From Bacilli bacterium (lineage in GTDB: Bacteria > Bacillota_I > Bacilli_A > RF39 > UBA660): DNA of 64,000 nucleotides. Numbering within the stretch: position 1 is the stretch's first letter; each line of letters starts with the position of its first letter. A model generated the notes under the pieces. The model was given only the letters and a program-made list of their open reading frames with translations, did no database searches and had not been told where the DNA came from. Positions 18,415-56,643 of this stretch are shown here, piece by piece. The position numbers were made by a program, and so were the translations under genes. The stretch spans positions 74,920 to 138,919 of the forward strand of contig JAFRQS010000011.1 of the NCBI GenBank assembly GCA_017428495.1, read 5' to 3'.

Positions 18415-18948
18415 TCAATTCTTTACTTTACATTTACCAATTTCATCTTTTGTAATAATCATATCAGTTGTATTTTCATCAATAAATTCTTCATATCTTC
18501 TACATACTTCTAAATCAGATTCAAATTCTCTAACTAATTCCTCATATCCTTTTGCTACATAAATAACAGGCCTATTAAACATTAAATTCTTTCTTAATTC
18601 ATTATTTTTCTCTTCTGCATTTTCCTTAGCTTCTTCAAATGTATCAAATAATTCTACTACTATTTCAACTGGCCAAGGAGTCATATTGTAATTAAATCTA
18701 ATTGTATCTTTTTCGTCACTTTCTAGATTACTGTTTTTAAAATTTTTAATATTATTATATGGAAAAAATACTATATTAGACGTCTTTAATGTACCATCAA
18801 CAGAATATATAACAGCACTACTTAATACATAACATTTAGATGCTATATACCCCAATATTACCTTTTTATATCCTTGTAAATAACCACCCTGCTCTTTTAC
18901 TTCTAACACTGCATATTTTATTGGATATTTCATTACCATAATATTCAC
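18415..18948 (-). CDS. hypothetical protein, member A of a 3-gene tandem paralog array
   Basis: 177 aa; shares YP[IV]KYAV, GYI.SKCYV, FPY, ENTTDM, KCKVK motifs with the two upstream genes; no signal peptide. Confidence 0.6.
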   Translation of the reverse strand: MNIMVMKYPIKYAVLEVKEQGGYLQGYKKVILGYIASKCYVLSSAVIYSVDGTLKTSNIVFFPYNNIKNFKNSNLESDEKDTIRFNYNMTPWPVEIVVELFDTFEEAKENAEEKNNELRKNLMFNRPVIYVAKGYEELVREFESDLEVCRRYEEFIDENTTDMIITKDEIGKCKVKN

Positions 18949-19464
18949 CTATTCCTTAACTTTACGTTTAACTTTATCTACAACCATATCTGTTGTATTT
19001 TCTGAAATATAACTTTCATATAATCTACATGCTACAAATGTTCTATCAATTTGTTGAGATATTTTTTCTCTAGTTATAGAATGTTCTATATAAGCAATTT
19101 TTTCTTCTTTTAAATAAATATTTTTCCATTTTACTGCTAAAGCTGCTTCTTCATATGTATCATATAATTCATTAACTATAAATTCTGGATGTTCAAGATT
19201 TTCTCTTTCCGGTACACATCTTTGCTCATAGTAACTATCTCCATTTAAGTGTTTTCTAAAATATTCATTAAAATCACCAAATCTTCTATATGGAAAGGTT
19301 ACTATATGCCTAATAGTTGGTCCATCATTTCTATCATATTTAATTCTATCTTCAACAACATAACATTTTGATACAATGTATCCCTCTGTAATATCTCTAT
19401 ATTCTTCAGTAGAATCGCCTATAACTTTTAGTACTTCTACTGCATATTTTATTGGATAACTCAT
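18949..19464 (-). CDS. hypothetical protein, member B of tandem paralog array
   Basis: 171 aa; MSYPIKYAVEVLK...GYIVSKCYVVEDRIKY...VTFPYRRF...ISENTTDMVVDK. Confidence 0.6.
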   Translation of the reverse strand: MSYPIKYAVEVLKVIGDSTEEYRDITEGYIVSKCYVVEDRIKYDRNDGPTIRHIVTFPYRRFGDFNEYFRKHLNGDSYYEQRCVPERENLEHPEFIVNELYDTYEEAALAVKWKNIYLKEEKIAYIEHSITREKISQQIDRTFVACRLYESYISENTTDMVVDKVKRKVKE

Positions 19465-19483
19465 ATTAAAATCTCCTTTTCAA

Positions 19484-20005
19484 CTAAATTTTAACTTTAC
19501 ATTTTTCTTTATCTACAACCATATCTGTTGTATTTTCTGAAATAAAAATTGCATATTCTCTACATAAATCTAAATCCTCATCAATTTGTTTGCTTAAACT
19601 TTCAAATTGTGCACTTGATGTATGTAATAACAGCTCACTTTTTAAATTATTGTTTCTTCTTTCTGCTTCAAGATATGCATCTTCAATATTATCATATAAT
19701 TTTTCCATAACAACTAATTCTTCTAATGAAGGTATGTTTCTTTGTTCATAATATGCTTGCGGTAAACGGAATGGACTTGTATGTATATTTTTAAGTATTT
19801 TATTATATCTAATAAAGTCTTCAAATCTACTATATGGAAATGTTACAGCATGCACAACATATGGAGTATGTCCACCATATCTAATTCTGTCTTCTATAAC
19901 ATAACACTTTGATACAATATATCCTTTTATTGTGTCTTGGTAATCTTCAACGTATCCACCTTCAATTTTTAATTCTTCTACTGCATATTTAACTGGGTAA
20001 CTCAT
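19484..20005 (-). CDS. hypothetical protein, member C of tandem paralog array
   Basis: 173 aa; MSYPVKYAVEELK...GYIVSKCYVIEDRIRY...VTFPYSRF...ISENTTDMVVDKEKCKVKI; 8 nt downstream of lon stop. Confidence 0.6.
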   Translation of the reverse strand: MSYPVKYAVEELKIEGGYVEDYQDTIKGYIVSKCYVIEDRIRYGGHTPYVVHAVTFPYSRFEDFIRYNKILKNIHTSPFRLPQAYYEQRNIPSLEELVVMEKLYDNIEDAYLEAERRNNNLKSELLLHTSSAQFESLSKQIDEDLDLCREYAIFISENTTDMVVDKEKCKVKI

Positions 20006-30007: not shown

Positions 30008-30648
30008 TAATTCACCATCTCCCCAATATACTCAGTAAAATTAGTAAGATATATTATTCCAACTAACATCAATAATATCATAACTAAATTCAAAAACCAT
30101 TCTTTTTTTAAAACATTTGGTAATTTATCTCTCAATTTATCTAATAAAATAAATACAATAGCTCCAATTGCACCACCAATTATATTTAATATAATATCAT
30201 CTACATCAAACACCCTACCTATAATATTTTGTACAATTTCAATAGAAACAGATGATATAGCAGTAAGAATAACAGCAGGATATACTTTATTTTGATCCAA
30301 ATACGCTGTTACAAATAGCCCAAATGGCATAAATAATAGTATATTACCAACAAAGTTCTTTATAAACATTTTTGAATTCAAACTATATCTAAACATTTCT
30401 TTAAATGGTATATAATTTGATAACCCATAATTATCATCTTGAAATGTAACAATATAGAATAAACTAAGTAAATATATAATAAACAATAGATATGTTAATT
30501 CCTTGTAAAATACAAATTTCTCTTTTTTAGATATAAGATATGCAATTCTAACAGAAGAAAGAATAATAGTAAATATAACTATCATAGTCCATGCTCCTCC
30601 AAATATTTCAAGAATCATACCTTTTATCAATATTTCACTTCCTCTCAA
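30007..30648 (-). CDS. VanZ-family membrane protein
   Basis: 213 aa; multi-TM with VanZ-like motif region YIPFKEMF...NILLFMPFGLF. Confidence 0.55.
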   Translation of the reverse strand: MRGSEILIKGMILEIFGGAWTMIVIFTIILSSVRIAYLISKKEKFVFYKELTYLLFIIYLLSLFYIVTFQDDNYGLSNYIPFKEMFRYSLNSKMFIKNFVGNILLFMPFGLFVTAYLDQNKVYPAVILTAISSVSIEIVQNIIGRVFDVDDIILNIIGGAIGAIVFILLDKLRDKLPNVLKKEWFLNLVMILLMLVGIIYLTNFTEYIGEMVN

Positions 30649-31810
30649 TATCTATCCTTCTTACACTAGTTATATTGGCATATATCTTATAGAATATATC
30701 CATATATATTGTATTACTATTTGAACTATATTTCAATACTTTGTAACTAATTATGTACTCATCTTCATCCAATAATTCTTTCATTTTATTTTTAGAATAC
30801 TCTTTAGCATTTAAAATTGCTTCTGCTTCTGTATATATACCATTAATACTTTTTAATTCATAAATAGTATCACGTGATATTCCAATAGGTAAAATTGCAT
30901 TTTTATATATATATTCCTTACTCACATAACTATTATTAAAACCATTTTTATCAAACAAAATAATACTCTTATTAAATATATTTAAACTAAAAACTTGCTT
31001 CTTATTTCCAGTTTCTTCTTTTGTATCATTAATAAGTGGATATTCTACACTCAATTTATACCACACTTCTCCATATACTTCCCCTGAAGCTTCTACAGTT
31101 TTTTTAATTTCATCATTTAAATAAATATTACCACTAATAATTATGTCCCCTTTTTTTACATAATCATTTATATCCTTAACTTTCATACCACTATTAACTA
31201 CTATTTTTTTTATTACAGCATCTCTTTTAGCTACTATATCCTGAAATTCATAATTATTAGTAATATTATTTATTTTTCTTTCTTCAAGTCTTACCACATA
31301 CTTTGTACCTATTCTTTCAATTTCTAACCACTCTATTTTATCCTTATTATTATCCAATATCTTATTTTTTATTTTTTCTAATTCCTTAAAACTTTTTCTA
31401 AACTGTAATACATTTATTCCATTTTTATTTAATTCATTCATAACAAAATTTCTTGTCTTTTCGCTACTATGACTTATTTCTATAGAAAAGATAATATTAG
31501 TCAAAAAAATAAGAATAACTATTCCAAAAAATAAGGATATTAATAATATTTTATTAAATTTTAATTTATTAATTTTATCTTTTTTACCTCTATAGCTAAT
31601 AATATCAATTTTATTTAAAATACTTAATTTCTTTACTTTATTATAATCACATTCATTTATCTCAACTACTACCTCTTTAAAACTAACCACATTCACACTA
31701 TATATATCTATATTAAGCTTATATAAATTACTTAAAAACCTATCTATATTTTTAGTTTTAATTTTTAATACAATTATATTATTAAGATTATCTAAAAATC
31801 TATTCTTCAT
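30635..31810 (-). CDS. yqfD: sporulation protein YqfD (stage IV sporulation, single-TM)
   Basis: 391 aa, one central TM helix, immediately downstream of yqfC-like gene and upstream of the ybeY block, matching the yqfC-yqfD arrangement of sporeformers. Confidence 0.65.
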   Translation of the reverse strand: MKNRFLDNLNNIIVLKIKTKNIDRFLSNLYKLNIDIYSVNVVSFKEVVVEINECDYNKVKKLSILNKIDIISYRGKKDKINKLKFNKILLISLFFGIVILIFLTNIIFSIEISHSSEKTRNFVMNELNKNGINVLQFRKSFKELEKIKNKILDNNKDKIEWLEIERIGTKYVVRLEERKINNITNNYEFQDIVAKRDAVIKKIVVNSGMKVKDINDYVKKGDIIISGNIYLNDEIKKTVEASGEVYGEVWYKLSVEYPLINDTKEETGNKKQVFSLNIFNKSIILFDKNGFNNSYVSKEYIYKNAILPIGISRDTIYELKSINGIYTEAEAILNAKEYSKNKMKELLDEDEYIISYKVLKYSSNSNTIYMDIFYKIYANITSVRRIDIERK

Positions 31811-32042
31811 TAAAACTAATACTATTTATATCCCCAGATATAAATAATTCATCCTTCTTTAACTTAGATATAACTAATTTATTTCCACTTATAGATATAA
31901 CTTTATATTTAGTATTTACTTTAATACTTTTATCACTAAAATTAGATATACACACATAGTTAATAATATAAATACCAGATTTATATATATGTATTTCTAA
32001 ATCACTCGGATCAATATAGTTCTTTATCCTATCTAAAATCAC
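31800..32042 (-). CDS. yqfC: sporulation protein YqfC
   Basis: 80 aa; pattern ...HIYKSGIYIINYV...ISGNKLVISKL...ELFISGDINSI parallels B. subtilis YqfC. Confidence 0.6.
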   Translation of the reverse strand: MILDRIKNYIDPSDLEIHIYKSGIYIINYVCISNFSDKSIKVNTKYKVISISGNKLVISKLKKDELFISGDINSISFNEE

Positions 32043-32100
32043 AATATCACCTATTAAAATATATGAAAAAAAGACTTCATTAGAAGTCTTAAATAATCAA

Positions 32101-33342
32101 TTAACTGCCCGAAGTAGTGCATGAACTACCTGCACACCAATTTGTAACCCCATTACTTGTAATATGACATCTAGCCTCATTCCACCACTCAGTAGGAACG
32201 TGGCAATATACATCACCATTAGTACATTTCCATATTTCGCCACCTTGTGCATATCTGCAATTAGACTCACCAAATACTTGAGTTGCATGATTAAGATTAT
32301 CAGCTGAATATTTATTAGAAAAACAATTTATATCTGAATCTCCATTACCTCTATATAATATACATATTTCAGGGTCATCATTCCTAGTAAATTCGGTTGT
32401 ATCTCCAGGCCATCTTATAAATACATTTTTATTTAATAAAGAGTAATCTGCTACAGCAGTATTTGATCTTGTAACAAAACTATCAAAAGCATTATCACTT
32501 CGCGTAAGAAATGAAGTCATTTCATCATATACATATGTACCAGTATTTATTCTATCTCCAAAGTATAAACTAGTGCTCTCATTACTACCATCTTCCCATA
32601 TATCATTACTATTACTACATACCTTTGTCGCATGGGAATCATCTTCTGGATATATTTCATCATTGATATCATAACCTAAATCATTATATAATATCCAATT
32701 TTTACATGCAGTCTGATTAGTTACTGTATATGTATAACCCATCCAATAATTATCCATTAAAAATTGTGATGCACTATAATTGGTACCTATATCAGAACTA
32801 TTAGTACATACATTATTTGAATATAATGTTGCATCTGTATCAGTTTCTCCCCATGAAACAAATAGTGACTTTATAGCTGGTTTACATAATGTCTCATTAG
32901 TTACTGCATATACTAAAGAATATTCAAATGTATATAAATATTCTGGGGCATTTGGATCGCCTTGTGTACAACTTATACTATCTTTTGTACCACTACATTT
33001 TATTCCTGCAAATTTACTTCCACTTGCTCCTTTTAATTTTACTGTTGCGACTCCATTTAAATTATATGTAATTGTACAACTTGAATAATTGTCATTTAAT
33101 TTTGCAACATCAGTACATGGTATACTTGTTTCATCATAATTTGGATTTATAGCTTGTTGAGCCAAATAATCTTTTTCTGCATTTGTTGCTATTAATCTTG
33201 CGCTACTTTCCATACTCTTTAATCTTGATTCTTGTATTGTATTCATTATTTGTGGTATTGCTATTATAAGTATTACTGCTAATATTACTATTACTGCTAA
33301 TAACTCTACCAATGTAAAGGCTTTCTTCTTATTCTTTTTCAT
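32101..33342 (-). CDS. large prepilin-type N-terminal domain protein (type IV pilin-like), Cys-rich, two ~65-aa internal modules; paralog of 37115-38830
   Basis: 413 aa; class III leader MKKNKKKA/FTLVELLAVIVILAVILIIAIPQIM (Glu at +5, Ala at -1); first ~130 aa and last ~80 aa conserved with the 571-aa paralog, variable modular middle (Y[AT]VTN..C....[IV]K ... K[IV]C[ST]N repeated). Confidence 0.75.
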   Translation of the reverse strand: MKKNKKKAFTLVELLAVIVILAVILIIAIPQIMNTIQESRLKSMESSARLIATNAEKDYLAQQAINPNYDETSIPCTDVAKLNDNYSSCTITYNLNGVATVKLKGASGSKFAGIKCSGTKDSISCTQGDPNAPEYLYTFEYSLVYAVTNETLCKPAIKSLFVSWGETDTDATLYSNNVCTNSSDIGTNYSASQFLMDNYWMGYTYTVTNQTACKNWILYNDLGYDINDEIYPEDDSHATKVCSNSNDIWEDGSNESTSLYFGDRINTGTYVYDEMTSFLTRSDNAFDSFVTRSNTAVADYSLLNKNVFIRWPGDTTEFTRNDDPEICILYRGNGDSDINCFSNKYSADNLNHATQVFGESNCRYAQGGEIWKCTNGDVYCHVPTEWWNEARCHITSNGVTNWCAGSSCTTSGS

Positions 33343-33385
33343 ATCTTACTCCTATCTTATATCTTTATTATATCATTCTTATATA
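32950..33385. repeat. dispersed direct repeat copy 1 (5' end of pilin-like gene plus promoter), about 85-90% nucleotide identity to 38455-38875
   Basis: Hand alignment of 33001-33342 with 38498-38830 shows long identical runs (e.g. ATTCATTATTTGTGGTATTGCTATTAT, TACTGCTAATATTACTATTACTGCTAATAA) and shared upstream ACTCCT..TATAT..TTTATTATATCA. Confidence 0.7.
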
Positions 33386-33402
33386 TTTTTTTAAACTATA
33401 AA

Positions 33403-33426
33403 TAAAAAAATTAGACATAGTCTAAT
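33403..33426 (-). terminator. rho-independent terminator after yqeY
   Basis: ATTAGAC-ATA-GTCTAAT hairpin overlapping the yqeY stop, A-run on plus (T-run on minus). Confidence 0.45.
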
Positions 33427-33862
33427 TTAATTTGTTTTTTATTATTGAACTAACTAAAGACATATCAGCTTTACCCTTTAATTTTGATGAAGCCTCTTTC
33501 ATAACACTTCCCATATCTTTAATACTAGTAGCATTAACTGTTTTAATTATATGATCAATTATATCAATAATTTTTTCTTCACTTAATTGCTCAGGCATAT
33601 AACTTGATAATATTTTGATTTCTTCATTTGTTTGATCAATTAAATCCTGTCTATTACCTTTTTCAAATTCAACTATTGATTCTTTTCTAGTTTTAATTTG
33701 TTTACCAATTATTACTATTATATCCTCATCTGACACTTTTTCTAATTTCTTATTAATTCTTTCTAAATCAATAGATCCTTTTAACATTCTTAATGTTTGA
33801 AGTCTTAAAGTGTCTTTGGATTTCATTGCTTCTTTAATATCATTAGTTATTCTTTCTAACAT
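33422..33862 (-). CDS. yqeY: GatB/YqeY-domain protein
   Basis: 146 aa; MLERITNDIKEAMKSKDTLRLQTLRMLKGSI matches YqeY family start. Confidence 0.75.
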   Translation of the reverse strand: MLERITNDIKEAMKSKDTLRLQTLRMLKGSIDLERINKKLEKVSDEDIIVIIGKQIKTRKESIVEFEKGNRQDLIDQTNEEIKILSSYMPEQLSEEKIIDIIDHIIKTVNATSIKDMGSVMKEASSKLKGKADMSLVSSIIKNKLN

Positions 33863-33870
33863 ATTATCAC

Positions 33871-34068
33871 CTAATCATAGTTTCTATTTTTTCTATTTTG
33901 TTTTCTACTATTAATAATAGCATTTTTCTTTGCTTCTCTTCTTAATACTCCTGGTTTACTGAAATGTTCCCTTTTCTTCTTTTCAGAGAGAGTACCACTT
34001 TTTGCTACTTGTTGCTTAAATCTCTTAAGTGAATTCTCAAAACTACCTTTTACAACAGTTCTAGTCAT
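33871..34068 (-). CDS. rpsU: 30S ribosomal protein S21
   Basis: 65 aa, basic; LKRFKQQVAKSGTLSEKKKREHFSKP matches the bS21 signature. Confidence 0.85.
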   Translation of the reverse strand: MTRTVVKGSFENSLKRFKQQVAKSGTLSEKKKREHFSKPGVLRREAKKNAIINSRKQNRKNRNYD

Positions 34069-34163
34069 TATTTTATCCCTCCCTCCAACTTAAATTCAAA
34101 TGAATTATACCACCAAATATGATATATTTCAACAATTTTCTTAATAAGACACAAAAAAAAGCA

Positions 34164-34352
34164 CTACTTAGATGCTTCTTCTTTTGATAATACTTTTTTG
34201 CCCTTATAATATCCACATTCAGTACATACTCTATGTGGTCTTATAATAGCTCCACAATTAGAACACTTAGTTGTACCATTTTCTTCTATTTTATAATGAG
34301 TACGACGCATTCTTTTTCTTGTTTTACTTACTTTTCTAAATGGAACTGCCAT
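34164..34352 (-). CDS. rpmF: 50S ribosomal protein L32
   Basis: 62 aa; MAVPFRKVSKTRKRMRRTH and 4-Cys zinc ribbon. Confidence 0.85.
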   Translation of the reverse strand: MAVPFRKVSKTRKRMRRTHYKIEENGTTKCSNCGAIIRPHRVCTECGYYKGKKVLSKEEASK

Positions 34353-34368
34353 GTTATCCCCTCCTCAT

Positions 34369-34806
34369 TTAATCTTCTCTTATGAATCTCCATCCATCTC
34401 CAGATATAGGAGTATCATCAATATCCGCACTTACAACTCTTAATGGGATTTCCAATACAATATTTTGCCATATAATTGAAATAATATCAATAGTATTTTG
34501 ATTTATTTTTACATATTCTTCATCAAAATCATCTTCATTTGATAATTTTAACTCTGTTTTTATATCAAATGGATAATCGACGTCTTTCAATGTAATAGCG
34601 CAAGGAAGTACCATTGTACCTTTAATTTCAAGACTCATACTATATGAAGAATCTGTAACTCTTCTTATATGTGCATTAACATCCACTGGACTTAAATGTC
34701 TTATATCTGTGTTTTCATATAATGATTCATTTAATATAATTGTATCATTATATTCTAATTCATTTGTCAATCTGTTTTGTAATCTAGTTAAATCTAACAT
34801 AATCAC
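34369..34806 (-). CDS. yceD: YceD/DUF177 family protein (upstream of rpmF)
   Basis: 145 aa acidic protein directly upstream of rpmF, the conserved yceD-rpmF pairing. Confidence 0.65.
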   Translation of the reverse strand: MIMLDLTRLQNRLTNELEYNDTIILNESLYENTDIRHLSPVDVNAHIRRVTDSSYSMSLEIKGTMVLPCAITLKDVDYPFDIKTELKLSNEDDFDEEYVKINQNTIDIISIIWQNIVLEIPLRVVSADIDDTPISGDGWRFIRED

Positions 34807-34849
34807 TCACCTAGTAAATTATACTAGTTTTATTATAGAATTGCAAGTT

Positions 34850-35437
34850 TTATTTATCTTTATCCATATTAAATTTCTTAACTTTTAAAGGCTTTTTAAC
34901 TCTAACTGCTGATTTTTCTGTATTAACTATATTTTCATCTAACTCAGGTTCATACAATTTGATTTGCGGATAATATAGTCCATATTGTGATAATTCATAT
35001 GGTGTCGCATCAATCATACCTTCATCCATCATATCTTTAAATAAATCTAAATCTGCTGATATTTCTTCTACATCTGCAAAATCTAATTTTATATTTCCAG
35101 AATAAACATCCTCTTCAGGCTCAATTGGATAACTACCTATAAATTCATGTAAGTACCCATTTTGGTTAACCCATACTGTTCTCAATCCAACATTTACAAG
35201 TACTACCCCGTCTATTGTAACATCATTATCACTAAATATAAGTTTCTTTAATACAAAAATAACACCTTTTGGTATATTCATATTATTAATAGTAATATTA
35301 TCACTAAGCTTCAGTATATATTGCTCTTTATCATCAATAACTTTTCTTTCTACAGCAATCTTTGAACCATTCTTTGTTTTCATTGCAAATCTTTCTGTAC
35401 CTATCATTTCTTCATGTGTCTTCATACCATCACCCAA
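34850..35437 (-). CDS. hypothetical protein
   Basis: 195 aa ORF, no signal peptide, acidic middle and basic tail; no family recognised. Confidence 0.4.
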   Translation of the reverse strand: MGDGMKTHEEMIGTERFAMKTKNGSKIAVERKVIDDKEQYILKLSDNITINNMNIPKGVIFVLKKLIFSDNDVTIDGVVLVNVGLRTVWVNQNGYLHEFIGSYPIEPEEDVYSGNIKLDFADVEEISADLDLFKDMMDEGMIDATPYELSQYGLYYPQIKLYEPELDENIVNTEKSAVRVKKPLKVKKFNMDKDK

Positions 35438-35503
35438 TTAAATTTTAACATATAACTTCCAATAATTCTACAATTTATGTTAAAATTAATGTGAGGTGTA
35501 ATT

Positions 35504-35989
35504 ATGAGAATTGATAAAATTAACTATTATTTAGATATTGCAGAAGCTGCATTAGAAAGAAGTACATGCATAAGAAGAAATTTTGGTGCAATAATTGTTA
35601 AAAATGATGAGATAATTTCTACTGGATATAATGGTGCTCCAAGAGGTAGAAAAAATTGTACTGATTTAGGATATTGTATGAGGGAAAAATTAAAAATTCC
35701 AAGAGGAGAAAGATATGAACTATGTAGAAGTGTTCATGGAGAAGAAAATGCTATAATAAGTGCATCAAGAAGAGATATGATAGGTGCTGATTTATATTTG
35801 GTTGGTAAAAATTATAATGATGGTTCATATGTTAAAGATGCAAGACCTTGCTCAATGTGTAAAAAAACTATAATTAATTCGGGAATTAATAAAGTATATA
35901 TTAGAAATGATAAAGAGAATTATACTGTAATCGATGTACAAGATTTTATAGATAATGATGAATCATTAGAAGGAACTTTAGGTTATTAA
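35504..35989 (+). CDS. dCMP deaminase (ComEB-like)
   Basis: CMP/dCMP deaminase zinc motifs HGEENAI and PCSMCKK. Confidence 0.8.
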   Translation: MRIDKINYYLDIAEAALERSTCIRRNFGAIIVKNDEIISTGYNGAPRGRKNCTDLGYCMREKLKIPRGERYELCRSVHGEENAIISASRRDMIGADLYLVGKNYNDGSYVKDARPCSMCKKTIINSGINKVYIRNDKENYTVIDVQDFIDNDESLEGTLGY

Positions 35990-37101
35990 TGAATGTTATT
36001 GGAATAATTGCAGAATATAATCCATTCCATAATGGACATTTATATCAAATAAATAAAATAAAAGAATTATATAAAGATTCTATTATAATTGTGATAGTTA
36101 ATGGGAATTTTACTCAAAGAGGAGATATTTCAATAATAAATAAATGGGATAAAGCTAGAATACTACTAAATCATAATGTAGATTTAGTAATTGAACTTCC
36201 TACATTTTATGGAATAAATAATGCTGATATATTTAGCAAAGGAGCATTAAAAATACTAAATGAATTAAAGATAGATACTCTAGTATTTGGTACAGAAAGA
36301 GATAACTTAGATGATTTTTATAAACTAATTAAATGTAAAAAAACTAATGAATACAAGAAATTATTAAAAGAATATTTAAATAAAGGTTATTCTTATCCAA
36401 AAGCATCATTTGAATCTTTAAAGAAATTGACAAATATAGAATTATGTACTCCAAATGATATACTTGCACTATCATATATTGAAGAAATAGAAAATAACAA
36501 ATATAATATTAAACCATTAAATATTAAAAGAACAGCTGATTATCATTCAAAAGAATTAACAAATAGTGCTACATCTATTAGAGAAGCATTAAAAAATAAT
36601 ATTGATATATCTAAATATGTACCTAGAGATGTTATAAAATATATAAGTAATGTATCTTTAAATGATTATTTTGATTTAATAAAATATAAAATATTATCTA
36701 GTGATGATCTAACAATATATCATGATATTAAAGAAGGAATAGATTCTAGAATCAAAAAATATATATTAGAATCAAATAATTTAGATGAATTAATAAATTT
36801 AGTTAAAACAAAAAGATATACATATAATAGGATAAAAAGAATATTACTATATATATTGTTAGATATTAAGAAAGATATACAAATAAATGATTATATTAGA
36901 TTACTAGGATTTAATGACAAAGGTAAAAAATATATTAAAAGTATTAAAAAAGAAATTAATATACCATTAATATCTAATTATAGTAATAATAAAGATTTAT
37001 TAGAATTTGAATATAAAGTAAATACTATATATTCATTAAAACAAACTAACATAAATGAATATATAAAAAAAGAATTAAATAATCCAATAGAGATTAAATA
37101 A
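35989..37101 (+). CDS. tmcAL: tRNA(Met) cytidine acetate ligase TmcAL (YlbM/UPF0348 nucleotidyltransferase)
   Basis: 370 aa; N-terminus MNVIGIIAEYNPFHNGHLYQ matches YlbM/TmcAL HxGH-type motif. Confidence 0.75.
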   Translation: MNVIGIIAEYNPFHNGHLYQINKIKELYKDSIIIVIVNGNFTQRGDISIINKWDKARILLNHNVDLVIELPTFYGINNADIFSKGALKILNELKIDTLVFGTERDNLDDFYKLIKCKKTNEYKKLLKEYLNKGYSYPKASFESLKKLTNIELCTPNDILALSYIEEIENNKYNIKPLNIKRTADYHSKELTNSATSIREALKNNIDISKYVPRDVIKYISNVSLNDYFDLIKYKILSSDDLTIYHDIKEGIDSRIKKYILESNNLDELINLVKTKRYTYNRIKRILLYILLDIKKDIQINDYIRLLGFNDKGKKYIKSIKKEINIPLISNYSNNKDLLEFEYKVNTIYSLKQTNINEYIKKELNNPIEIK

Positions 37102-37114
37102 TTCTTTTTTATTA

Positions 37115-38830
37115 TTAGCTTATCCATTCACCGCATCCACCATTTATATTACATTCTTTTCCAGAATGATATCCTTCTTGGCAATAAAATTCATTACCAC
37201 TAGATAAACTTGTTCTATTAACACGGCACCTAAAACGCCTTCCTCCAGTATTTTGTTCACATACAATTGTATTATTCCATTCAGCAATAACATTGCAGTT
37301 ACTTTCCCCAAATACATTCTTCAATTGATCATCAATTGTATTATCAAAAGTAAAACAATTAAAATCATTATTAGTATTACCTTTATATTTAATGCAAACA
37401 GCTTTATCAGTTGTAGAATCAAATTCATCAGTATCTCCAGGCCATCTTATAAATACAATAGAATTAATATCATTAGGATTTGTATAAGTTTCAGTACCTT
37501 GATATACTCTAGTTGAGAATTGATTATATGCATTTTCCCTATTTAAAAATGCATATAAATTGTATTCATTACCAATACTGTCAGCAAACCATTCACTTGT
37601 TGTTAAAACTATACCTCCAGTATCATATCCATTACCATTACAAACACTAGTAGCAATTGCATTTGCCTCACTTTCTAAATAGCCCCATTTATTTATATAA
37701 TCATCTTTTATTTTAGTTTCACACTCCGATTTATTAGTCACTATATAATTATATAAGTATCTTTCATTATCAATAAACCAATCATCAGCTGTAGATTCTG
37801 TATATTCATCAATATTATTAGTATTGCTACATATTTTTTGAGCACTTAATTCAGCGCTTGAAACATCGTAGTTAAAGTTATTTATCAAATCTCCTTTCAC
37901 AAATGTTTTACAAGCGTTTGCATCAGTTACAGTATATAAATCTACTCCATCAGTTGTAGTTTTAGTTGTAAATGAACTTATACTAGAACTGCTAATACCA
38001 TTGCTAGACACTCCTGTAAAAAACCAATCACTTGTAGTAGTATATCTTATTGTATCTAAATTATTACATACTTTATAAGCTGTTGAAGCAGCATAATAAT
38101 CAGGTTCTCCATTATTCATTTCTTTTTGTTTAATAAATGGTAAACAACTTGATTTGTTAGTTACAGTATAGAAATCAGCACCATAGCGATTTATTTTACT
38201 TACAAAAGAACTTATTTCTGAATAAGTAAATAATCCATTTGCAATTGATTCATCAATATAATCAGATGCTGTAAAAGCTAGGCTTGATTTTGTGCATATT
38301 TTATAAGCATCTGAAGTAAGTCGATAATTACTTTTGTTATAATGCAATTCTTCAATTCTTTTTACAGCATTAACACAATTTGCTTCATTTGTTATTGTAT
38401 ATGTATATAATTCTCTAGGAATTCCAAATGAATACACATATTCTGATACATTATCTCTCTGTATACAATTCATTTCATCTTTTGTACCTGTACATGTTAT
38501 TCCTGCAAACTTACTGCCACTTGCTCCTTTTAATTTTATTGTTGCTGTGCCATTACTATTATATGTAATTGTACAACTCGAATAATCATCATTTAATTTT
38601 GCAACATCAGTACATGGTATACTTGTTGCATTATAATTTTGATTTACTGCTTGCTGACTTAAATAGTCTTTTTCTGCATTTGTTGCTATTAGTTTTGCAC
38701 TACTTTCCATACTTTTTAATCTTGTAGATTTAATTGTATTCATTATTTGTGGTATTGCTATTATTAGTATTACTGCTAATATTACTATTACTGCTAATAA
38801 TTCTACTAATGTAAATCCTTTCTTTTTCAT
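37115..38830 (-). CDS. large prepilin-type N-terminal domain protein (type IV pilin-like), Cys-rich, four ~65-aa internal modules; paralog of 32101-33342
   Basis: 571 aa; canonical class III leader MKKKG/FTLVELLAVIVILAVILIIAIPQIM; four repeats of TVTN..C...IK / KIC.N modules; conserved C-terminal block IVFIRWPGDTDEF...VFGESNC shared with the paralog. Confidence 0.75.
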   Translation of the reverse strand: MKKKGFTLVELLAVIVILAVILIIAIPQIMNTIKSTRLKSMESSAKLIATNAEKDYLSQQAVNQNYNATSIPCTDVAKLNDDYSSCTITYNSNGTATIKLKGASGSKFAGITCTGTKDEMNCIQRDNVSEYVYSFGIPRELYTYTITNEANCVNAVKRIEELHYNKSNYRLTSDAYKICTKSSLAFTASDYIDESIANGLFTYSEISSFVSKINRYGADFYTVTNKSSCLPFIKQKEMNNGEPDYYAASTAYKVCNNLDTIRYTTTSDWFFTGVSSNGISSSSISSFTTKTTTDGVDLYTVTDANACKTFVKGDLINNFNYDVSSAELSAQKICSNTNNIDEYTESTADDWFIDNERYLYNYIVTNKSECETKIKDDYINKWGYLESEANAIATSVCNGNGYDTGGIVLTTSEWFADSIGNEYNLYAFLNRENAYNQFSTRVYQGTETYTNPNDINSIVFIRWPGDTDEFDSTTDKAVCIKYKGNTNNDFNCFTFDNTIDDQLKNVFGESNCNVIAEWNNTIVCEQNTGGRRFRCRVNRTSLSSGNEFYCQEGYHSGKECNINGGCGEWIS

Positions 38831-46940: not shown

Positions 46941-48290
46941 TTATTCCCCCAATCTTTTTTCTAGTTTCTCTTTTATATCATATACTTCTTTACAACCCAT
47001 AAATACTATTACTGCATTTTTATGTCTTAATAATGGATTTATACATTCAGTATAATTTATATCAATCAAATTATCTACACTACCAATCTTTAAATGCTCC
47101 GCATTTTTAAGTTCATTAACTATTAACATTGGTGAAGAATTAGGATATTCCTCTTGAGTTTCTCTATCACTAAATATATCAGTAACATATGCTTTATCAG
47201 CAACACTCAATGCATCTGCATATTCTTTATATAATGCTTGAGTTCTAGAGAAAGTATTTTCTAAAAATACTGCTACCAATTCCTTATTAGGATATTTTTG
47301 CCTTACTGCTTCTAATGTTACTTTAATTTCTGTAGGATGGTGAGCATAATCATCAATTGTTATTATATCTCCTATAGTTTTTTCTTTAAATCTCCTCTTT
47401 GCACCCTTAAATGATTTTATACTATCATGAACTTCATCAATATTAAGTCCTTCTATATAACTTAATATAATCACACTTAAAGCATTTAAAACCATATGCT
47501 TACCATATAATGGCAAATCAAAATGTCCTATGAACTCATTATAATGATATACATCAAAAGAACTACCTTCATGATTTAGTATTATATTCTTTGCTATCCA
47601 TTCATTATCTTCATTAAAACCATAATATATTAGTTTCTTATCTGTTTTTAAACTTCTAACATTTAAATCATCACCACATGCAATTACATTACCATCACAT
47701 TGCCTTAAAAACTCTTCATATGCATCTTTCATATCTTCGATGTCTTTATAATAATCAACATGATCTAATTCTATATTAGTAAGAATGATATTTTTAGGAT
47801 AATAATTTAAAAAATGTCTTTTATACTCACAAGCTTCTAAAAAGAAATATTTATTAGCAGCCATTGCATGACCAGTACCATCACCAATCAAATAATTAGC
47901 TCCTACTAAATCATCAAAAACATGTGAAAGTAATGCAGTTGTAGTAGTCTTACCATGGCAACCACATATACATGTTGTATTATAATTATTTACTAATTCA
48001 TGAAGCATATCATAATAATAATACCTTTTAAGACCTAATTCAATTGCCTTTTTTACTTCAACATTAGATTCATCAAATGCATTACCAATTATAACTATCA
48101 TATGATCATCAATATTACTTTCGTCAAAAGGAGTTATCTTTATTCCTCTTTTAACTAGTTCATCTTCTGTAAACAAATGATGTGTAACATCAGATCCTTC
48201 CACTTCATTACCTAAATCTTTCAAAATAAGTGCAAGTGCACTCATTCCTGAACCCTTTATTCCAATAAAATGATATTTCATAAATCTCAC
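46941..48290 (-). CDS. murC: UDP-N-acetylmuramate--L-alanine ligase
   Basis: 449 aa; HFIGIKGSGMSALA N-terminal, Mur ligase central GTHGKTTTT motif. Confidence 0.85.
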   Translation of the reverse strand: MRFMKYHFIGIKGSGMSALALILKDLGNEVEGSDVTHHLFTEDELVKRGIKITPFDESNIDDHMIVIIGNAFDESNVEVKKAIELGLKRYYYYDMLHELVNNYNTTCICGCHGKTTTTALLSHVFDDLVGANYLIGDGTGHAMAANKYFFLEACEYKRHFLNYYPKNIILTNIELDHVDYYKDIEDMKDAYEEFLRQCDGNVIACGDDLNVRSLKTDKKLIYYGFNEDNEWIAKNIILNHEGSSFDVYHYNEFIGHFDLPLYGKHMVLNALSVIILSYIEGLNIDEVHDSIKSFKGAKRRFKEKTIGDIITIDDYAHHPTEIKVTLEAVRQKYPNKELVAVFLENTFSRTQALYKEYADALSVADKAYVTDIFSDRETQEEYPNSSPMLIVNELKNAEHLKIGSVDNLIDINYTECINPLLRHKNAVIVFMGCKEVYDIKEKLEKRLGE

Positions 48291-48375: not shown

Positions 48376-48735
48376 CTATGTACGATGAAAACCAGAAATA
48401 TAATGGCCATCATTATATATACTATAACTTACATATCCTTTAATTTCAGAATTATCTCTAGGATCAAGTATCGGACAATCTAAATATTTATTTTCACATA
48501 AATCATCAATATCAATGCTTACAGAGTCTCCAACTACATTCAATTCCTCATATAAATCAGGATTATCAAGCATATAATTTTGAGCAACTCTTTCTATTTC
48601 ATTCACTATATCAGTATATAATGCATTTTTCTTTTTATTATATATATCTAATACATTAGGTACAGCAATCATAGCTAACATACCAAGAATTGCTATTACA
48701 GCAATTAATTCTATTAAAGTAAATCCCTTTTTCAT
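48376..48735 (-). CDS. small type IV pilin/pseudopilin (prepilin-type N-terminal cleavage/methylation domain)
   Basis: 119 aa; canonical leader MKKG/FTLIELIAVIAILGMLAMIAVPNV with Glu+5. Confidence 0.7.
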   Translation of the reverse strand: MKKGFTLIELIAVIAILGMLAMIAVPNVLDIYNKKKNALYTDIVNEIERVAQNYMLDNPDLYEELNVVGDSVSIDIDDLCENKYLDCPILDPRDNSEIKGYVSYSIYNDGHYISGFHRT

Positions 48736-51719: not shown

Positions 51720-54071
51720 TTAACAACCTCCTGTTTCTGTATACGTAGCTGTAACAATGTCTTCTCGTTTTGAAGGATCTGCATAATATGAGACTCTTGT
51801 AAAAACGCAGTGTGTTTCTGTTGTTATAGTTCTCTGATGATTAGAACATATACCTTTTTTTACTGTATAATATGTACTACCTATATAACGTATATTTTTT
51901 TCATTTTTAGAGCAATTAGTCTCATGCCAACATGTTTTATAACCACATTGAATTGCATCTGCTTTATTTTCACAAGCTGTGCATGAATCCGCCCCACAAG
52001 AATCACATGCATTATAGCCACATATACTAGCATCTGTTACATCACCACACCATGCACACGTATTATATTCTATACATTTGTTTTTATTATTTGGATCATA
52101 TTTTTTGCAACCGCATGCTCCACAACTCCTAGGCTTACATGTAGCTGCACCACATCTTGAACATTTTTTATATCCACAATGTTCCACATCATTTCCATAA
52201 AATTCACACACCTCACATGTATCCGCACCACAACTCCAATGTTCACTTTTAACCCTATCGCAGTCTGGTTTTTGCACTTCTTCATTAAAATCATAGTGAC
52301 ATGATTCACCATTGTAACTACTTGAAGTTCCAGGGCCATCATCTGGAGGTTGAGTTTCACAATCTGATTTATAGCATCCTTGTCCATCACCTGTTGCTGA
52401 TGCAACCTGTCCATCTCCACAAGTTGCTTGTGATTTAGCTGTTTCTTCACTTGAATATGGATAATCTCCTGAACATACACAATCTACTTTATAACATCCT
52501 TCTCCATTATTAGAACATTGTTTTACTTGATTTGATGATGAACATGATATTGAATTCTTTGCATCATCTTCACTTATATGTGGATAGCTTGCTGGACATG
52601 CTTTTCCTTTTACAATTAATGTACAAGTACCAGTTTTTGTAGAATCCACTTTTGATGTTACTGTTACTGTTATTTTTTGATCTATTGGTGATAATCCATT
52701 ATTTCCTTTAACTTCTCCTGTTTCTTCATTTATTGTTGCATATGTTGTATCTGATAAACTCCATTTTACATCAGTCTTTGTAGAATTCTTTGGTGTATAA
52801 ACTTTCTCCATTTGCCCTATACCATTATATTCTATCTCTAAATTTTTACATCCTAATGTTTCAGGTATTCCATCCCATACTGTTACTTTACATGTTGATG
52901 TCTGTCCTCTTGTTGTTTTTACCCTTATTGTTACTTCCTTTGTACCTGTTATATTCTGCGCTGTTATTTGTGCCTTTGATAAACAATTCGAATTTGTATT
53001 ATTTAACTCACATGTTTCTGGTGGGTTTGAATATTGTATTGTTAAAGCACTTGGATCGCTACTTGTCCATTCCAACTTTCTATTTGCTGCATTTGCAGGT
53101 ACATATTGTGGATGTAATGTTACTTTTGTTCCAGAAGCTATTTTTATTCCTTCTGCTGGACATACAACATAACTTGAATTATCTGCACTTGGTTCATTTG
53201 GGTTTGTTTCTGGACTTAAATCATTTGGATTCTTTGGTACCAATACTTCTATATCTGTTGTACATACTTGTTTTCTTACTCTTTCTTTTATACTTTCATT
53301 TATTGTTCTTACATCTGTACTTTCACTAAATGTCCATGTATAAATATATTCATTACCTGATGATACTGGATTTGCTGTTACTATTCTTGTCTTTTCACTA
53401 CTCCATTTTCCACATTCACATATTGCATATCTTGCTGTTCTTTCTTTATCTCTTGGGGCTTCCTCATCTTGACATATTCCTATTGGTAAATTTGATTCTC
53501 CCCATCCTAAAAAGCTTATATCTCCTGGTATACAATCCATCTCTTCATCTGATATGTCTGATGCACACCTATTCTCTCCACTTGATGAATCTATTTCTAC
53601 TTTTGTTCCAAACTCTTGTCTTATTGTATTACATTCTTCTGCTGTCTTATCTTCACACAAAAAATCTATTACTTCATCTATTTTATATTTTGTCTCTATA
53701 ACACCATCTACTCGATTTACTAATCCAAATTCTTCTCCTCTTAATGATGTTACTCCACTTCTTATTCTTAATGATATCTTAGGTGGTACTTCATTTAAAT
53801 CTTCTACTATTATCTTATAGTCACCTATTGTTACATTTTGAGCAAATCTTCTTGTTAAATTCTCTATAAATTTATCTTCTGCTATTTTCATGTTTCCTGT
53901 TGTTCTATAATATTGCAAATCTATTGCATCATATGCTGCCGCTTGTGTTGTTTCTTTTATTAAATAATATACTCTATCATTATCTACTGTTACATTTTGA
54001 AATAAATTTACTACTAATATTCCAAATAATCCTAGTACTACTATTAGTACTCCCCATATCGCTTCTTTCAT
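51720..54071 (-). CDS. large surface protein: N-terminal membrane anchor, two Big_2-like Ig domains, C-terminal Cys-rich CGY-x2-C repeat region
   Basis: 783 aa; N-term hydrophobic MKEAIWGVLIVVLGLFGILVVNLF; Big_2-like segments (VVCPAEGIKIASGTKVTLHPQYVPANAANRKLEWTSSDPSALTIQ; KVYTPKNSTKTDVKWSLSDTTYATINEETGEVKG); C-terminal about 150 aa with about 35 Cys including HCGYKKCSRCG, ICGYNACDSCG, QCGYKTCWHETNC. Confidence 0.6.
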   Translation of the reverse strand: MKEAIWGVLIVVLGLFGILVVNLFQNVTVDNDRVYYLIKETTQAAAYDAIDLQYYRTTGNMKIAEDKFIENLTRRFAQNVTIGDYKIIVEDLNEVPPKISLRIRSGVTSLRGEEFGLVNRVDGVIETKYKIDEVIDFLCEDKTAEECNTIRQEFGTKVEIDSSSGENRCASDISDEEMDCIPGDISFLGWGESNLPIGICQDEEAPRDKERTARYAICECGKWSSEKTRIVTANPVSSGNEYIYTWTFSESTDVRTINESIKERVRKQVCTTDIEVLVPKNPNDLSPETNPNEPSADNSSYVVCPAEGIKIASGTKVTLHPQYVPANAANRKLEWTSSDPSALTIQYSNPPETCELNNTNSNCLSKAQITAQNITGTKEVTIRVKTTRGQTSTCKVTVWDGIPETLGCKNLEIEYNGIGQMEKVYTPKNSTKTDVKWSLSDTTYATINEETGEVKGNNGLSPIDQKITVTVTSKVDSTKTGTCTLIVKGKACPASYPHISEDDAKNSISCSSSNQVKQCSNNGEGCYKVDCVCSGDYPYSSEETAKSQATCGDGQVASATGDGQGCYKSDCETQPPDDGPGTSSSYNGESCHYDFNEEVQKPDCDRVKSEHWSCGADTCEVCEFYGNDVEHCGYKKCSRCGAATCKPRSCGACGCKKYDPNNKNKCIEYNTCAWCGDVTDASICGYNACDSCGADSCTACENKADAIQCGYKTCWHETNCSKNEKNIRYIGSTYYTVKKGICSNHQRTITTETHCVFTRVSYYADPSKREDIVTATYTETGGC

Positions 54072-54075
54072 ATTA

Positions 54076-55362
54076 TCACTTCCTATCTATGATATCTGGA
54101 TTTGCAATAATAAATTTGCTCTTATTCATCTCATTAATATTAAATGTATCATAAGGATGATTTTTATTATACTCTCTTACTCTTCCTATTTTACTTCTAT
54201 CTAAAGTTATAACAAATCTTTCCATTGTTGATAAATTACTACTAGTAGAAGTTATATATTTATTTACTAATGTCTTTCCATCTGGAGTAAGACCACTCCA
54301 GTTAGCTGAAGGCTCTCTATTTGGAAATGGATTATTAACATCAATTATTCTATATTGAAATGCCTGGCCACCATATTTATCATAATTTTCATCTGTTTCT
54401 GAACCTGGTTTTGTCACAGGGAATGATAAATTTTTTACTTTATATGAACAATTTACATTTAAATTCCATACATCTCCACCTGCTATTAAATTATTACCTA
54501 AATTTCTAGCAGTTAATACTAATGAATATCCTCTATCAGTAGGATCTGATGCAACTGGCCTTGTATACTCATTAAATGATGTAAAATACTTATCTCCAGC
54601 ATTACACCTATCATATCTATATGTAGATTCTATATTTCCAGTATTTAACTCCAAAAATGTATCAGCCATTGTGTATTTACCATTTAACATAACTGTTTCA
54701 TTCCAACTTTTAATTGTTTTATTACTAAGTTTACAATCATAAGTCGCTTCATCAAAATTACATGCCATAGGAGTTACATTTATCTCATCCATATCTACAA
54801 CTTTTGAATATTCACCCATTTGAGAAAAATGATAAGGAATAGTTTCTACATTCTGAGAAGTAGATACATTTAACTCTACATTTCCATTAAATTTATACTT
54901 ATGAATATTTGATTCATCATCTGATGTAAATTCATCACAAGCTTTTTTATTTTCATAATAATTAACTATTTCTCTTCTTTTGGTTTCTTTTTCTTCACCT
55001 GATAAACTTTTATATTCATTTACCAATTCTTTTATTTTAGATTCATATTGAGTATATTTATATTCAGCAGTACAATTTCTCTTTCCACTAGCATATAATG
55101 GATAATTAAAACCAGTTCCTGCTAATACTCTTTTTATAGGATCAACTGAAAACAATATTTCTTCTTTACATTTAATAGTACAAACATCATTTTTTAGTAC
55201 TTCAATTTCATTCTCAGTTCTAAATGTAGTAACCGTACTTTTACTTGCATCACATGTAATCTCTCTACTATTTGTATTAACCGTATTTATAACTGGATCA
55301 CATGTAGCAGCAAAAGTTACAACTGGTAACAATAACGCAAATAATAATAATTTCTTTTTCAT
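54076..55362 (-). CDS. secreted Cys-containing hypothetical protein
   Basis: 428 aa; signal peptide MKKKLLLFALLLPVVTFAA; 4-nt gap/overlap coupling to flanking genes. Confidence 0.55.
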   Translation of the reverse strand: MKKKLLLFALLLPVVTFAATCDPVINTVNTNSREITCDASKSTVTTFRTENEIEVLKNDVCTIKCKEEILFSVDPIKRVLAGTGFNYPLYASGKRNCTAEYKYTQYESKIKELVNEYKSLSGEEKETKRREIVNYYENKKACDEFTSDDESNIHKYKFNGNVELNVSTSQNVETIPYHFSQMGEYSKVVDMDEINVTPMACNFDEATYDCKLSNKTIKSWNETVMLNGKYTMADTFLELNTGNIESTYRYDRCNAGDKYFTSFNEYTRPVASDPTDRGYSLVLTARNLGNNLIAGGDVWNLNVNCSYKVKNLSFPVTKPGSETDENYDKYGGQAFQYRIIDVNNPFPNREPSANWSGLTPDGKTLVNKYITSTSSNLSTMERFVITLDRSKIGRVREYNKNHPYDTFNINEMNKSKFIIANPDIIDRK

Positions 55363-56021
55363 AATATACCTCGATTCTTTGACCTTCTTTTCATAATTAT
55401 TCTTAATAAAACCAATAATATAATTGTTAAACTAACAATTATCAAATGTCTATGTTCATATATATATCCAAGCACATCTATATTGGTTTCATCATTCTCT
55501 TGTGGTTTAATTTCTGTTTCTTCTCTTTTATTTAAACTTTCTATATACTCATTCATCTTTTTTTCAAATTCTTTTTCACTCAAATTAACATTAGAATTTT
55601 CTTTACATAAAAAGTAATTTTCATATCCTTTGCACAAATCACTTTTTGAATATTTATTATAATATGGAACATTTATTACCTTTGTAAGTATTTTATATCC
55701 TTCACAATAATTATTATTGGATGCATATATTATAACTTGTATTTTACTTCCAGGTGTTAATCCATCAATAACATTACTTGAGTATTTTTTTCCATTACTA
55801 TCTGCCAAATACATATGCTTTGTTATATTGTAAAATATCACTTTATATGTAACTTTATCATTTTCAATATTTTTACTAAGTCTATATACAACATCATTAG
55901 CATCACTTCTAAGTGCTGTTTTAAAGCTATTTGTACATCTTGAATCTATTACATCATATTTTGCTAATGTAGTAATTGGTATAAATAGTAACATTAATAG
56001 CAAATAACGCAATTTCTTCAA
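55359..56021 (-). CDS. type I membrane protein (signal peptide, about 150-aa ectodomain, C-terminal TM and basic tail)
   Basis: 220 aa; N-term MKKLRYLLLMLLFIPITTLA, C-term LIIVSLTIILLVLLRIIMKRRSKNRGIL. Confidence 0.55.
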   Translation of the reverse strand: MKKLRYLLLMLLFIPITTLAKYDVIDSRCTNSFKTALRSDANDVVYRLSKNIENDKVTYKVIFYNITKHMYLADSNGKKYSSNVIDGLTPGSKIQVIIYASNNNYCEGYKILTKVINVPYYNKYSKSDLCKGYENYFLCKENSNVNLSEKEFEKKMNEYIESLNKREETEIKPQENDETNIDVLGYIYEHRHLIIVSLTIILLVLLRIIMKRRSKNRGIL

Positions 56022-56157: not shown

Positions 56158-56643
56158 ATGAAAAAGAATAAAGTAGCATGGCTTTTACCATTCATAGTAA
56201 TTATTATATTGAGAAGTTGTAATGCTATAAGAGAACAAGAGACTGGCGAAACTAGATATCAAAGATATCAAAGATATAAAGCTGGAACAACAAGTAGCCA
56301 AATGTATAATAATGATTATACTGAGTGCAAAACAATGGCATACTATGAAGATAAAACTAAGGATAGTTTTTATGCAGTTATGGATTACGCCTGTTTAAAA
56401 GAAGGATATCCACTATATGATTGGTATAAAGATGATATGAATGTAAAAGGATATTGCGAAAAAGATCAAATAGTATATGTGGAATCAACTAATGGTGAAT
56501 ATGCGCATGTATTTACTGATAAGAATATAGATGGTTATATACCTACCAGTATTTTAGAATATATACATAAGGAATATTTAGAACAAGATATATCAGAACC
56601 ATCTGTAAAAGTTCTCAAAAAACAAAAACTAGGAAATTCCTAG
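56158..56643 (+). CDS. secreted/membrane-anchored protein with C-terminal bacterial SH3-like domain (paralog 1)
   Basis: 161 aa; N-terminal hydrophobic anchor; C-terminal FYAVMDYACLKEGYPLYDWYKDDMNVKGYCEKDQIVYVESTNGEYAHVFTDKNIDGYIPTSILEYI. Confidence 0.6.
   Translation: MKKNKVAWLLPFIVIIILRSCNAIREQETGETRYQRYQRYKAGTTSSQMYNNDYTECKTMAYYEDKTKDSFYAVMDYACLKEGYPLYDWYKDDMNVKGYCEKDQIVYVESTNGEYAHVFTDKNIDGYIPTSILEYIHKEYLEQDISEPSVKVLKKQKLGNS

Follow-up and report, generated by a model that had tools for sequence, protein, structure and literature searches.

Two genes for large cysteine-rich proteins of 413 and 571 amino acids (aa), here called A and B, lie on the minus strand of a 64,000-nucleotide (nt) stretch of contig JAFRQS010000011.1 (hereafter the window) from a metagenome-assembled genome (MAG) labeled Bacilli bacterium (GCA_017428495.1). 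Both are probably modular type IV pilins, built from a carrier pilin module, a Cys-stapled stalk of variable length and, at the far end, a variable tip rich in Cys. They would be displayed by a filament encoded elsewhere, where a binding role as tip or minor pilins is probable. The modular architecture is directly supported by the motifs, repeats, predicted folds, family architecture and mosaic evolution described below. An earlier sequence-only reading of the region had reported both open reading frames (ORFs), which were found again at the same coordinates (Table 1), and had described them as a diversifying family of pilus-tip or minor-pilin adhesins or, alternatively, as a different fibre built on a pilin N-terminus. 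The former description was supported in part, with a real prepilin head, a true internal repeat and a match to the published modular-pilin concept (PMC8179133), and the adhesin role stays a conjecture. No specific support was found for the different fibre.

The class III prepilin leader that had been read from the letters of A and B was recognized by both profile searches. PF07963 (N_methyl) scored 29.1 bits for A and 28.1 bits for B against a gathering score of 21.2, and TIGR02532 scored 22.5 and 26.9 bits, respectively, against a cut-off of 16.3. The cleavage motifs were KKKA/FTLVE in A and KKKG/FTLVE in B, with Glu at position +5 in both, followed by a hydrophobic stretch of ~20 residues (LLAVIVILAVILIIAIP) that forms the N-terminal half of alpha1, a helix placed by AlphaFold2 (AF2) at residues 11-65. 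Profile matches to solved pilins extended through alpha1N, and in the AF2 model of A (mean predicted local distance difference test score, pLDDT, 85.7, with a 30-sequence alignment as input) the head was predicted to be an antiparallel beta-sheet packed on alpha1C, the globular head of a type IV pilin. The sole Foldseek match in the PDB was likewise a type IV pilin (4bhr_A, probability 0.99). A and B, which contain 16 and 20 Cys, respectively, aligned to each other by BLASTP with E = 5e-61, and the shared N-terminus claimed before was evident as a pilin domain of ~125 aa with 83% identity over 120 aligned residues, and, in the DNA, as a direct repeat of 300 nt that is 85% identical (32956-33255 vs 38453-38752). 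The ComGC equivalog NF040999 was not reached by either protein (31.8 bits for A and 34.4 bits for B vs a cut-off of 75), with only the N-terminal 52-57 residues aligning.

The middle parts of A and B are composed of two and four copies of one stalk module, as had been proposed. The motif Y-x-[VI]-T-[ND]-x3-C ... [KS]-[VI]-C occurred exactly twice in A (residues 145 and 205) and four times in B (residues 144, 221, 299 and 362), all 15 pairwise local alignment scores of the six modules exceeded those of shuffled controls (z = 4.1-13.4; 0-2 of 300 shuffles reached the observed score), and the measured module length of 60-78 aa was near the earlier estimate of ~65 aa. The model of A contained two units in this region (143-202 and 205-267), each predicted as a short strand and three helices. 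In module 1 these were a strand at 143-147 and helices at 150-163, 168-179 and 191-202, with a block pLDDT of ~88-97 over aa 141-200. The model of B (aa 123-571; pLDDT 69.4) repeated the strand-plus-helices unit four times and ended in a C-terminal domain of the same kind as that of A. Amino acid identity between the copies was ~20-30% and tandem DNA repeats were absent from the module-coding regions of both genes; the stalk modules are old, diverged repeats. Invariant Cys in the family alignment paired up, with two pairs in the pilin head, one in the module column common to all rows and the remainder in the C-terminal domain, and these pairs are presumed to be disulfides. Neither the 23 modules nor the 28 C-terminal domains examined gave a consistent Pfam match. 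Homologs with the same head and C-terminal domain had 0, 1, 2, 3 or 4 stalk modules, and the module was also placed between the same carrier and DUF285 or leucine-rich repeat (LRR) cargo. Because the copy number varies between a fixed carrier and C-terminal domain, and because the module precedes other cargo as well, the stalk modules would act as spacers. The closest one-module homolog of A (P0122; locus L084, 963-1973) was split from its N_methyl part, a 41-aa ORF, owing to a frameshift, a pseudogene or an assembly error. Given its different locus and this separation, P0122 was ruled out as a one-module allele of A.

The C-terminal block said to be common to A and B was recovered by BLASTP, with alignment along FIRWPGDT..F...C..Y.G....NCF...VFGESNC, and in the model of A it was predicted as an alpha/beta unit (279-365) followed by beta-hairpins (370-412). 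Word-index searches were too insensitive for such fast-evolving domains, yielding three proteins with the non-pilin part of B and five with the C-domain alignment. When 1.84 billion representatives were searched exhaustively with a profile of the non-pilin part, 172 matches of two kinds were obtained, namely proteins with this C-domain and giant proteins with SprB repeats and CHU_C. The C-domain consensus, with eight conserved Cys, was VF..L...KSVCI..NG.L.CFK.NNY..E...L..VFG...C...V.C....F.C.V.S.G.V.C.D....C.V...G.V.C. It terminates many proteins of 130-570 aa, whose N-termini otherwise consist of other prepilins, non-prepilin hydrophobic segments or Flg_new repeats, while one protein carried two copies behind a signal peptide. 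Because it is present on such varied pilin and non-pilin proteins, the C-domain is, judged by its distribution, an autonomous cargo domain. As in modular pilins, the C-terminal module is not specific to type IV pilus (T4P) biology, with the C-domain or stalk module occurring on proteins without a prepilin motif (P0124, P0151, P0188 and P0218). SipW/TasA-type signal peptides on the non-pilin carriers were unsupported: when ten C-domain proteins were scanned, the TIGR04088 score was 13.2 bits (cut-off 19) for one of the eight such proteins, and camelysin had no matches among the ten.

The tail of the C-domain varied between strains. The strain ortholog of B (P0001), encoded at a syntenic locus (L003), was 92% identical overall, with 97.3% identity over aa 1-512 (synonymous divergence, dS, 0.03) and 45.6% identity over aa 513-571 (dS 0.93). 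The divergent patch was flanked on both sides by 97-100% identical DNA, and because it is bounded in this way the tail of B is best read as a short-patch replacement between strains and not as gradual drift. Hypermutation by a diversity-generating retroelement calls for a nearly identical template copy close to the variable region and for changes by substitution only. It was rejected, as the window held no second copy of the patch and the patch contains indels. Mosaic evolution was also apparent between the two paralogs. The dS of A vs B was 0.33 in the pilin module, 1.17 in the stalk modules and 0.71 in the C-terminal block and was saturated in the tail, a comparison that is weakened by the strong codon bias of this AT-rich genome. 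Because dS was lower in the pilin module than in the rest, the carrier may be younger or homogenized, and the pilin modules of A and B may share a more recent history via shuffling or gene conversion.

A full-length homolog search returned 1,158 proteins. The best 120 of these were all 325-915 aa long, kept the four-Cys head without exception (120/120) and had Gly (63 proteins) or Ala (55 proteins) at position -1. At least eight unrelated cargo classes stood behind the same head in this set, among them the stalk module with the Cys-rich C-domain or DUF285 (73 proteins), a 'WRIVG' domain (29 proteins), Flg_new with LRR_5 (three proteins), a Hint domain (one protein, P0027) and four singletons. 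Since the four Cys were invariant in all 120 closest homologs, none of them shorter than 325 aa, the head of A and B points to a dedicated carrier domain. The best match to it among GTDB representative genomes was 66%. Homologs of A and B came from MAGs of human, mouse, rabbit, deer and rumen gut labeled Bacilli, Tenericutes or Erysipelotrichaceae, and A had the same sequence as P0002, which bears the NCBI name 'prepilin-type N-terminal cleavage/methylation domain-containing protein' ('MAG: Bacilli bacterium'). A conserved pilin domain with many different C-terminal parts, 0-4 modules among homologs and a tail replaced between strains thus bear out the diversifying family suggested by the sequence-only reading.

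From these features we infer processing, disulfide pairing, filament incorporation, tip position and a binding function for A and B as follows. The class III signal peptide would be cut before Phe1 by a prepilin peptidase, and the hydrophobic alpha1 would anchor the protein in the membrane before packing in the filament core, with the small beta-sheet head presumably held by disulfides between its two conserved Cys pairs. The two (A) or four (B) stalk modules, each a predicted short strand with two to three helices and two invariant Cys as a stapling disulfide, would serve as a variable-length spacer. The distal Cys-rich domain of ~120 aa, with its predicted alpha/beta core and Cys-bounded beta-hairpins, would be the likely ligand-contacting and strain-variable tip. 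A and B would be expressed from their own promoters at scattered chromosomal sites. Processing and display would fall to a type IV filament machine with genes in another part of the genome, and the two proteins would most likely be scarce components of the filament, at its tip or as minor subunits.

An AGGAG ribosome-binding site precedes the ATG of A, and the terminator-like hairpin just 3' of A suggests that it is a monocistronic unit. Both A and B have a promoter-like site with an extended -10 element and a good ribosome-binding site, and terminator-like hairpins were found around both genes. Their neighbors, yqeY and yqfC in the case of A and rluA-like and HIGH_NTase genes in that of B, are housekeeping genes without relation to them. 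Related gut Bacilli own type IV filament machines with large pilins placed beside them. At locus L040, PilC-PilD-PilB, small pilins and a large N_methyl pilin were all located within 10 kb. Locus L057 (1-7164; Erysipelotrichaceae MAG RUG14093) held a Tad-type operon with TadE-like, Tad-like, ParA/TadZ-like and TadA/VirB11-like ATPase genes and two T2SSF genes, which encloses a large pilin of 341 aa (PF07963; GFTLIE), along with another copy that is frameshifted, instead of a Flp-type pilin. This combination of Tad-type machinery with an N_methyl pilin is an unusual pairing. At three further loci (L006, L032 and L059) the order was TadA-like ATPase, murC, large pilin.

Several observations count against display of A and B by a type IV filament. 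Homologs of PilB, PilC, PilD, PilM and PilT were not found in the 64-kb window by phmmer with Pfam-verified queries, of 79 related loci, 74 had no T4P ATPase gene closer than 10 kb to that of the large pilin, and the pilins of the machinery loci L040 and L057 belong to a head subfamily different from that of A and B. About half of the family, including A (33316-33342), has Ala in place of the canonical Gly at -1, which makes a poorer prepilin-peptidase substrate. One related MAG contained at least 14 prepilin-type ORFs, 12 of them longer than 300 aa, which is many for tip subunits of one filament. Together with the scattered, monocistronic genes amid housekeeping genes and no machinery nearby, such numbers of paralogs per genome with bulky cargo (up to ~2,500 aa) fit pilin-anchored surface display without a pilus, in which the prepilin N-terminus is only a sorting and membrane anchor, perhaps in short membrane-proximal assemblies, and the stalk sets the projection through the wall. 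This explanation, the main rival and one that we consider possible though unlikely, would place many different large ectodomains at the cell surface of these gut Bacilli. It is also favored by P0124, where the module and C-block are kept behind a plain hydrophobic N-terminus without the GFTLxE motif and pilin head, and by the precedent of the archaeal bindosome, whose sugar-binding proteins have class III signal peptides (PMC2910488). A full, highly conserved globular head with four invariant Cys would however be needless for a simple anchor, and because the complete pilin head is conserved, contacts between subunits or with the machinery are suggested. The large pilins of related MAGs in or beside T4P/Tad-like operons also argue for a filament.

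Two further explanations concern the non-pilin parts. The stalk module could be a diverged SprB-type repeat, which would make A and B akin to giant SprB/type IX secretion system (T9SS)-type adhesins moved onto a pilin. The family profile did match giant SprB-repeat/CHU_C proteins (700-5,800 aa, 4-14 stretches each), and the SprB repeats of Bacteroidota (PF13573; T9SS CHU_C cargo), which form long arrays in surface adhesins, resemble the stalk in Y-x-Y-T-V-T-D-x-N-x-C followed by C-N-G ~25 residues on, as in 'YSYTVTDANSC-x24-LCNGG' with the same two-Cys pattern. The hhalign probability of 81.6% over 44 columns was too weak to settle homology, summed scores are inflated by multi-copy targets, and PF13573 matched none of the 23 modules at E up to 10, nor A nor B. 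Moreover, the likeness did not extend beyond the two motifs that hold the Cys, the intervening stretch was predicted to be helical in A and B but is Thr/Ser/Gly-rich in SprB-type repeats, and secretion route and phylum differ. Membership of the stalk module in the SprB family was consequently rejected in favor of a motif-level resemblance, and we regard a common origin as quite unlikely. Least probable of all is a polymorphic effector or toxin-like family, in which the pilin module would be a constant trafficking domain and the Cys-rich tail a toxin- or bacteriocin-like tip that recombination exchanges. In line with it are the architecture, in which the N-terminus is constant and the C-terminus varies, the sharp recombination patch at the extreme C-terminus and the Hint domains of P0027, of a kind common in polymorphic toxins. 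However, no toxin or immunity family was detected in A, B or the C-domain set, no small immunity-like ORF lies downstream (past A come a terminator and yqfC, past B a convergent gene), and the remaining cargo (LRR, DUF285 and Flg_new) is of the type of adhesin-like surface repeats.

Modular pilins displayed by a filament encoded elsewhere therefore remain our preferred interpretation. A broader proposal, which is speculative and on balance unlikely in its full extent, is that in wall-bearing, low-GC gut Bacilli the four-Cys head, absent from small pilins among the 120 closest homologs, serves generally to carry proteins for surface display. Each genome would then have dozens of large proteins borne on a type IV filament, which may be Tad-like in some lineages because the Tad-type operon of L057 encloses an N_methyl large pilin. 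Their reach would be set by the number of stalk modules and their Cys-rich tips exchanged between strains by short-patch recombination, giving a filament-based, antigenically variable adhesin repertoire.

Table 1. Features of genes A and B and of the small prepilin gene (positions in the window; evidence or remarks in the last column).
Feature	Position	Strand	Evidence and remarks
Gene A, modular prepilin of 413 aa with two stalk modules between pilin module and Cys-rich C-domain	32101..33342	-	ORF; PF07963 and TIGR02532 passed
A pilin module, aa 1-128	32959..33342	-	leader MKKNKKKA/FTLVE; alpha1 helix 11-65; beta-sheet 73-127; four invariant Cys (76, 89, 116, 125)
A stalk module 1, aa 141-202	32737..32922	-	Cys153 and Cys179; motif, shuffle statistics, AF2
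A stalk module 2, aa 203-270	32533..32736	-	Cys213 and Cys242, invariant in family alignment
A Cys-rich C-terminal domain, aa 289-413	32104..32478	-	predicted alpha/beta part FIRWPG...C..Y...NCF...VFGESNC, then Cys-bounded beta-hairpins
Promoter-like site upstream of A, TTTAAA-17-TATAAT with TG	33367..33395	-	consensus match only, AT-rich DNA
Terminator-like hairpin directly past A	32071..32090	-	
Gene B, modular prepilin of 571 aa with four stalk modules between pilin module and Cys-rich C-domain	37115..38830	-	ORF; PF07963 and TIGR02532 passed
B pilin module, aa 1-125	38456..38830	-	leader MKKKG/FTLVE; Cys 73, 86, 113, 122
B four stalk modules, aa 142-218, 219-296, 297-359, 360-430	37541..38407	-	motif, shuffle statistics, AF2
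B stalk modules 1-4, in order	38177-38407, 37943-38176, 37754-37942, 37541-37753	-	
B Cys-rich C-terminal domain, aa 440-571	37118..37513	-	A/B alignment, AF2
Strain-variable patch, codes for Cys-rich tail of B	37143..37310	-	~170 nt; 52-68% nt identity to ortholog, indels
Small prepilin, 119 aa, beside murC	48376..48735	-	PF07963 29.0 bits, TIGR02532 35.2 bits

The third pilin of the window, a 119-aa protein mentioned in the sequence-only reading, was confirmed as N_methyl positive, and a motif scan of the window revealed no prepilin besides this ORF, A and B. The ComGC and GspG models remained below their cut-offs with this protein. It is a candidate for an ordinary pilin subunit of the same filament system as A and B. 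The gene is located immediately upstream of murC (46941-48290), an adjacency also present in the related strain (L003) and, in opposite gene order, at four MAG loci. Just upstream of this pilin/murC region, at the site of a Tad-like operon in related MAGs, a gene cluster for uncharacterized proteins, secreted or membrane-bound (51720-56021, minus strand), was observed, which is conserved in a second sample (L083). It encodes a 783-aa protein with an N-terminal DUF5411, Big_2 and a C-terminal third that is extremely rich in Cys and has numerous CxxC-like spacings, preceded upstream by signal-peptide proteins of 428 and 220 aa with no Pfam match. Two other groups of paralogs were noted. Three tandem genes at 18415-20005 (minus strand) encode proteins of 171-177 aa that start with M(S)YP[IV]KYAVE and end with ...ENTTDM[IV][IV], and two adjacent genes on the plus strand (56158-56643 and 56720-57265) encode small secreted proteins with the shared C-terminal block YACLKEGYPLYDWY.DDM.V.GYCEK.QIVYV.STNG.Y.HVFT..N.DGYIP.S.LEY.

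The remaining gene content of the window, with a G+C content of ~24%, consists of Firmicute housekeeping, cell-wall and sporulation or germination genes (GerA-type operon, YabP, YqfD, MurC, FtsW, MraY, PBP and SMC). A GerA/GerC/GerB-like germination operon is located at 618-4145 and the sporulation genes yabP/yqfD at 30635-32042; the source MAG ('Bacilli', 24% G+C) is therefore a spore-former with a peptidoglycan wall and not a wall-less mollicute.

A and B are new members of the known modular-pilin class and not a new kind of system. This class comprises more than 1,200 proteins in 264 architectures with a proposed tip location (Raynaud et al. 2021, PMC8179133), and many with unannotated modules were expected by its authors. 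The closest counterparts are PilB (vWA module) and PilC (lectin module) of Streptococcus sanguinis, which share with A and B the monoderm host, a small IPR012902/PF07963 pilin module, one or more C-terminal non-pilin modules attached via a linker, a size above 400 aa that is large beside the major pilin, and a proposed role as tip-exposed effector or adhesin (PMC8179133; PMC9934059). In contrast, the extra parts of A and B match no described family and include a repeated stalk of two to four modules, the genes lie outside a pil operon, and the carrier is reused on at least eight cargo types in many paralogs. The type IVb minor pilins CofB of enterotoxigenic Escherichia coli and TcpB of Vibrio cholerae also combine a pilin module with domains unrecognized by sequence signatures and have been discussed as tip-located, but they carry beta-repeat and beta-sandwich domains, occur in diderm hosts and are encoded in the pilus operon, whereas the stalk of A and B is predicted to be helical and Cys-stapled and their genes are dispersed. 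The 'periscope' stalks of Gram-positive surface proteins (Rib, SasG-type) offer another comparison, as their rigid repeats vary in number between homologs and change the reach, as in the stalk of A and B. Periscope repeats are near-identical in DNA and change by slippage or recombination, unlike the diverged modules of A and B, which lack tandem DNA repeats. In the Sulfolobus 'bindosome', large non-pilin ectodomains are likewise carried on a prepilin-type N-terminus and several genes are located away from the assembly genes (PMC2910488); that archaeal system lacks a globular pilin head and carries solute-binding proteins as cargo, while A and B keep the full bacterial head.

Modular pilins are thought to give simple type IV filaments many functions, and most of their extra modules are still undefined. 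The present analysis defines two unannotated domain families, a two-Cys stalk module and an eight-Cys C-terminal domain, the latter on both pilin and non-pilin carriers. It further describes a single carrier pilin domain that is reused on at least eight cargo types in uncultured gut Bacilli, together with a concrete case of a tip replaced between strains. Should A and B prove to be displayed on a filament, they would become candidate attachment proteins with which these poorly known gut bacteria could bind to the host, to mucus or to particles.

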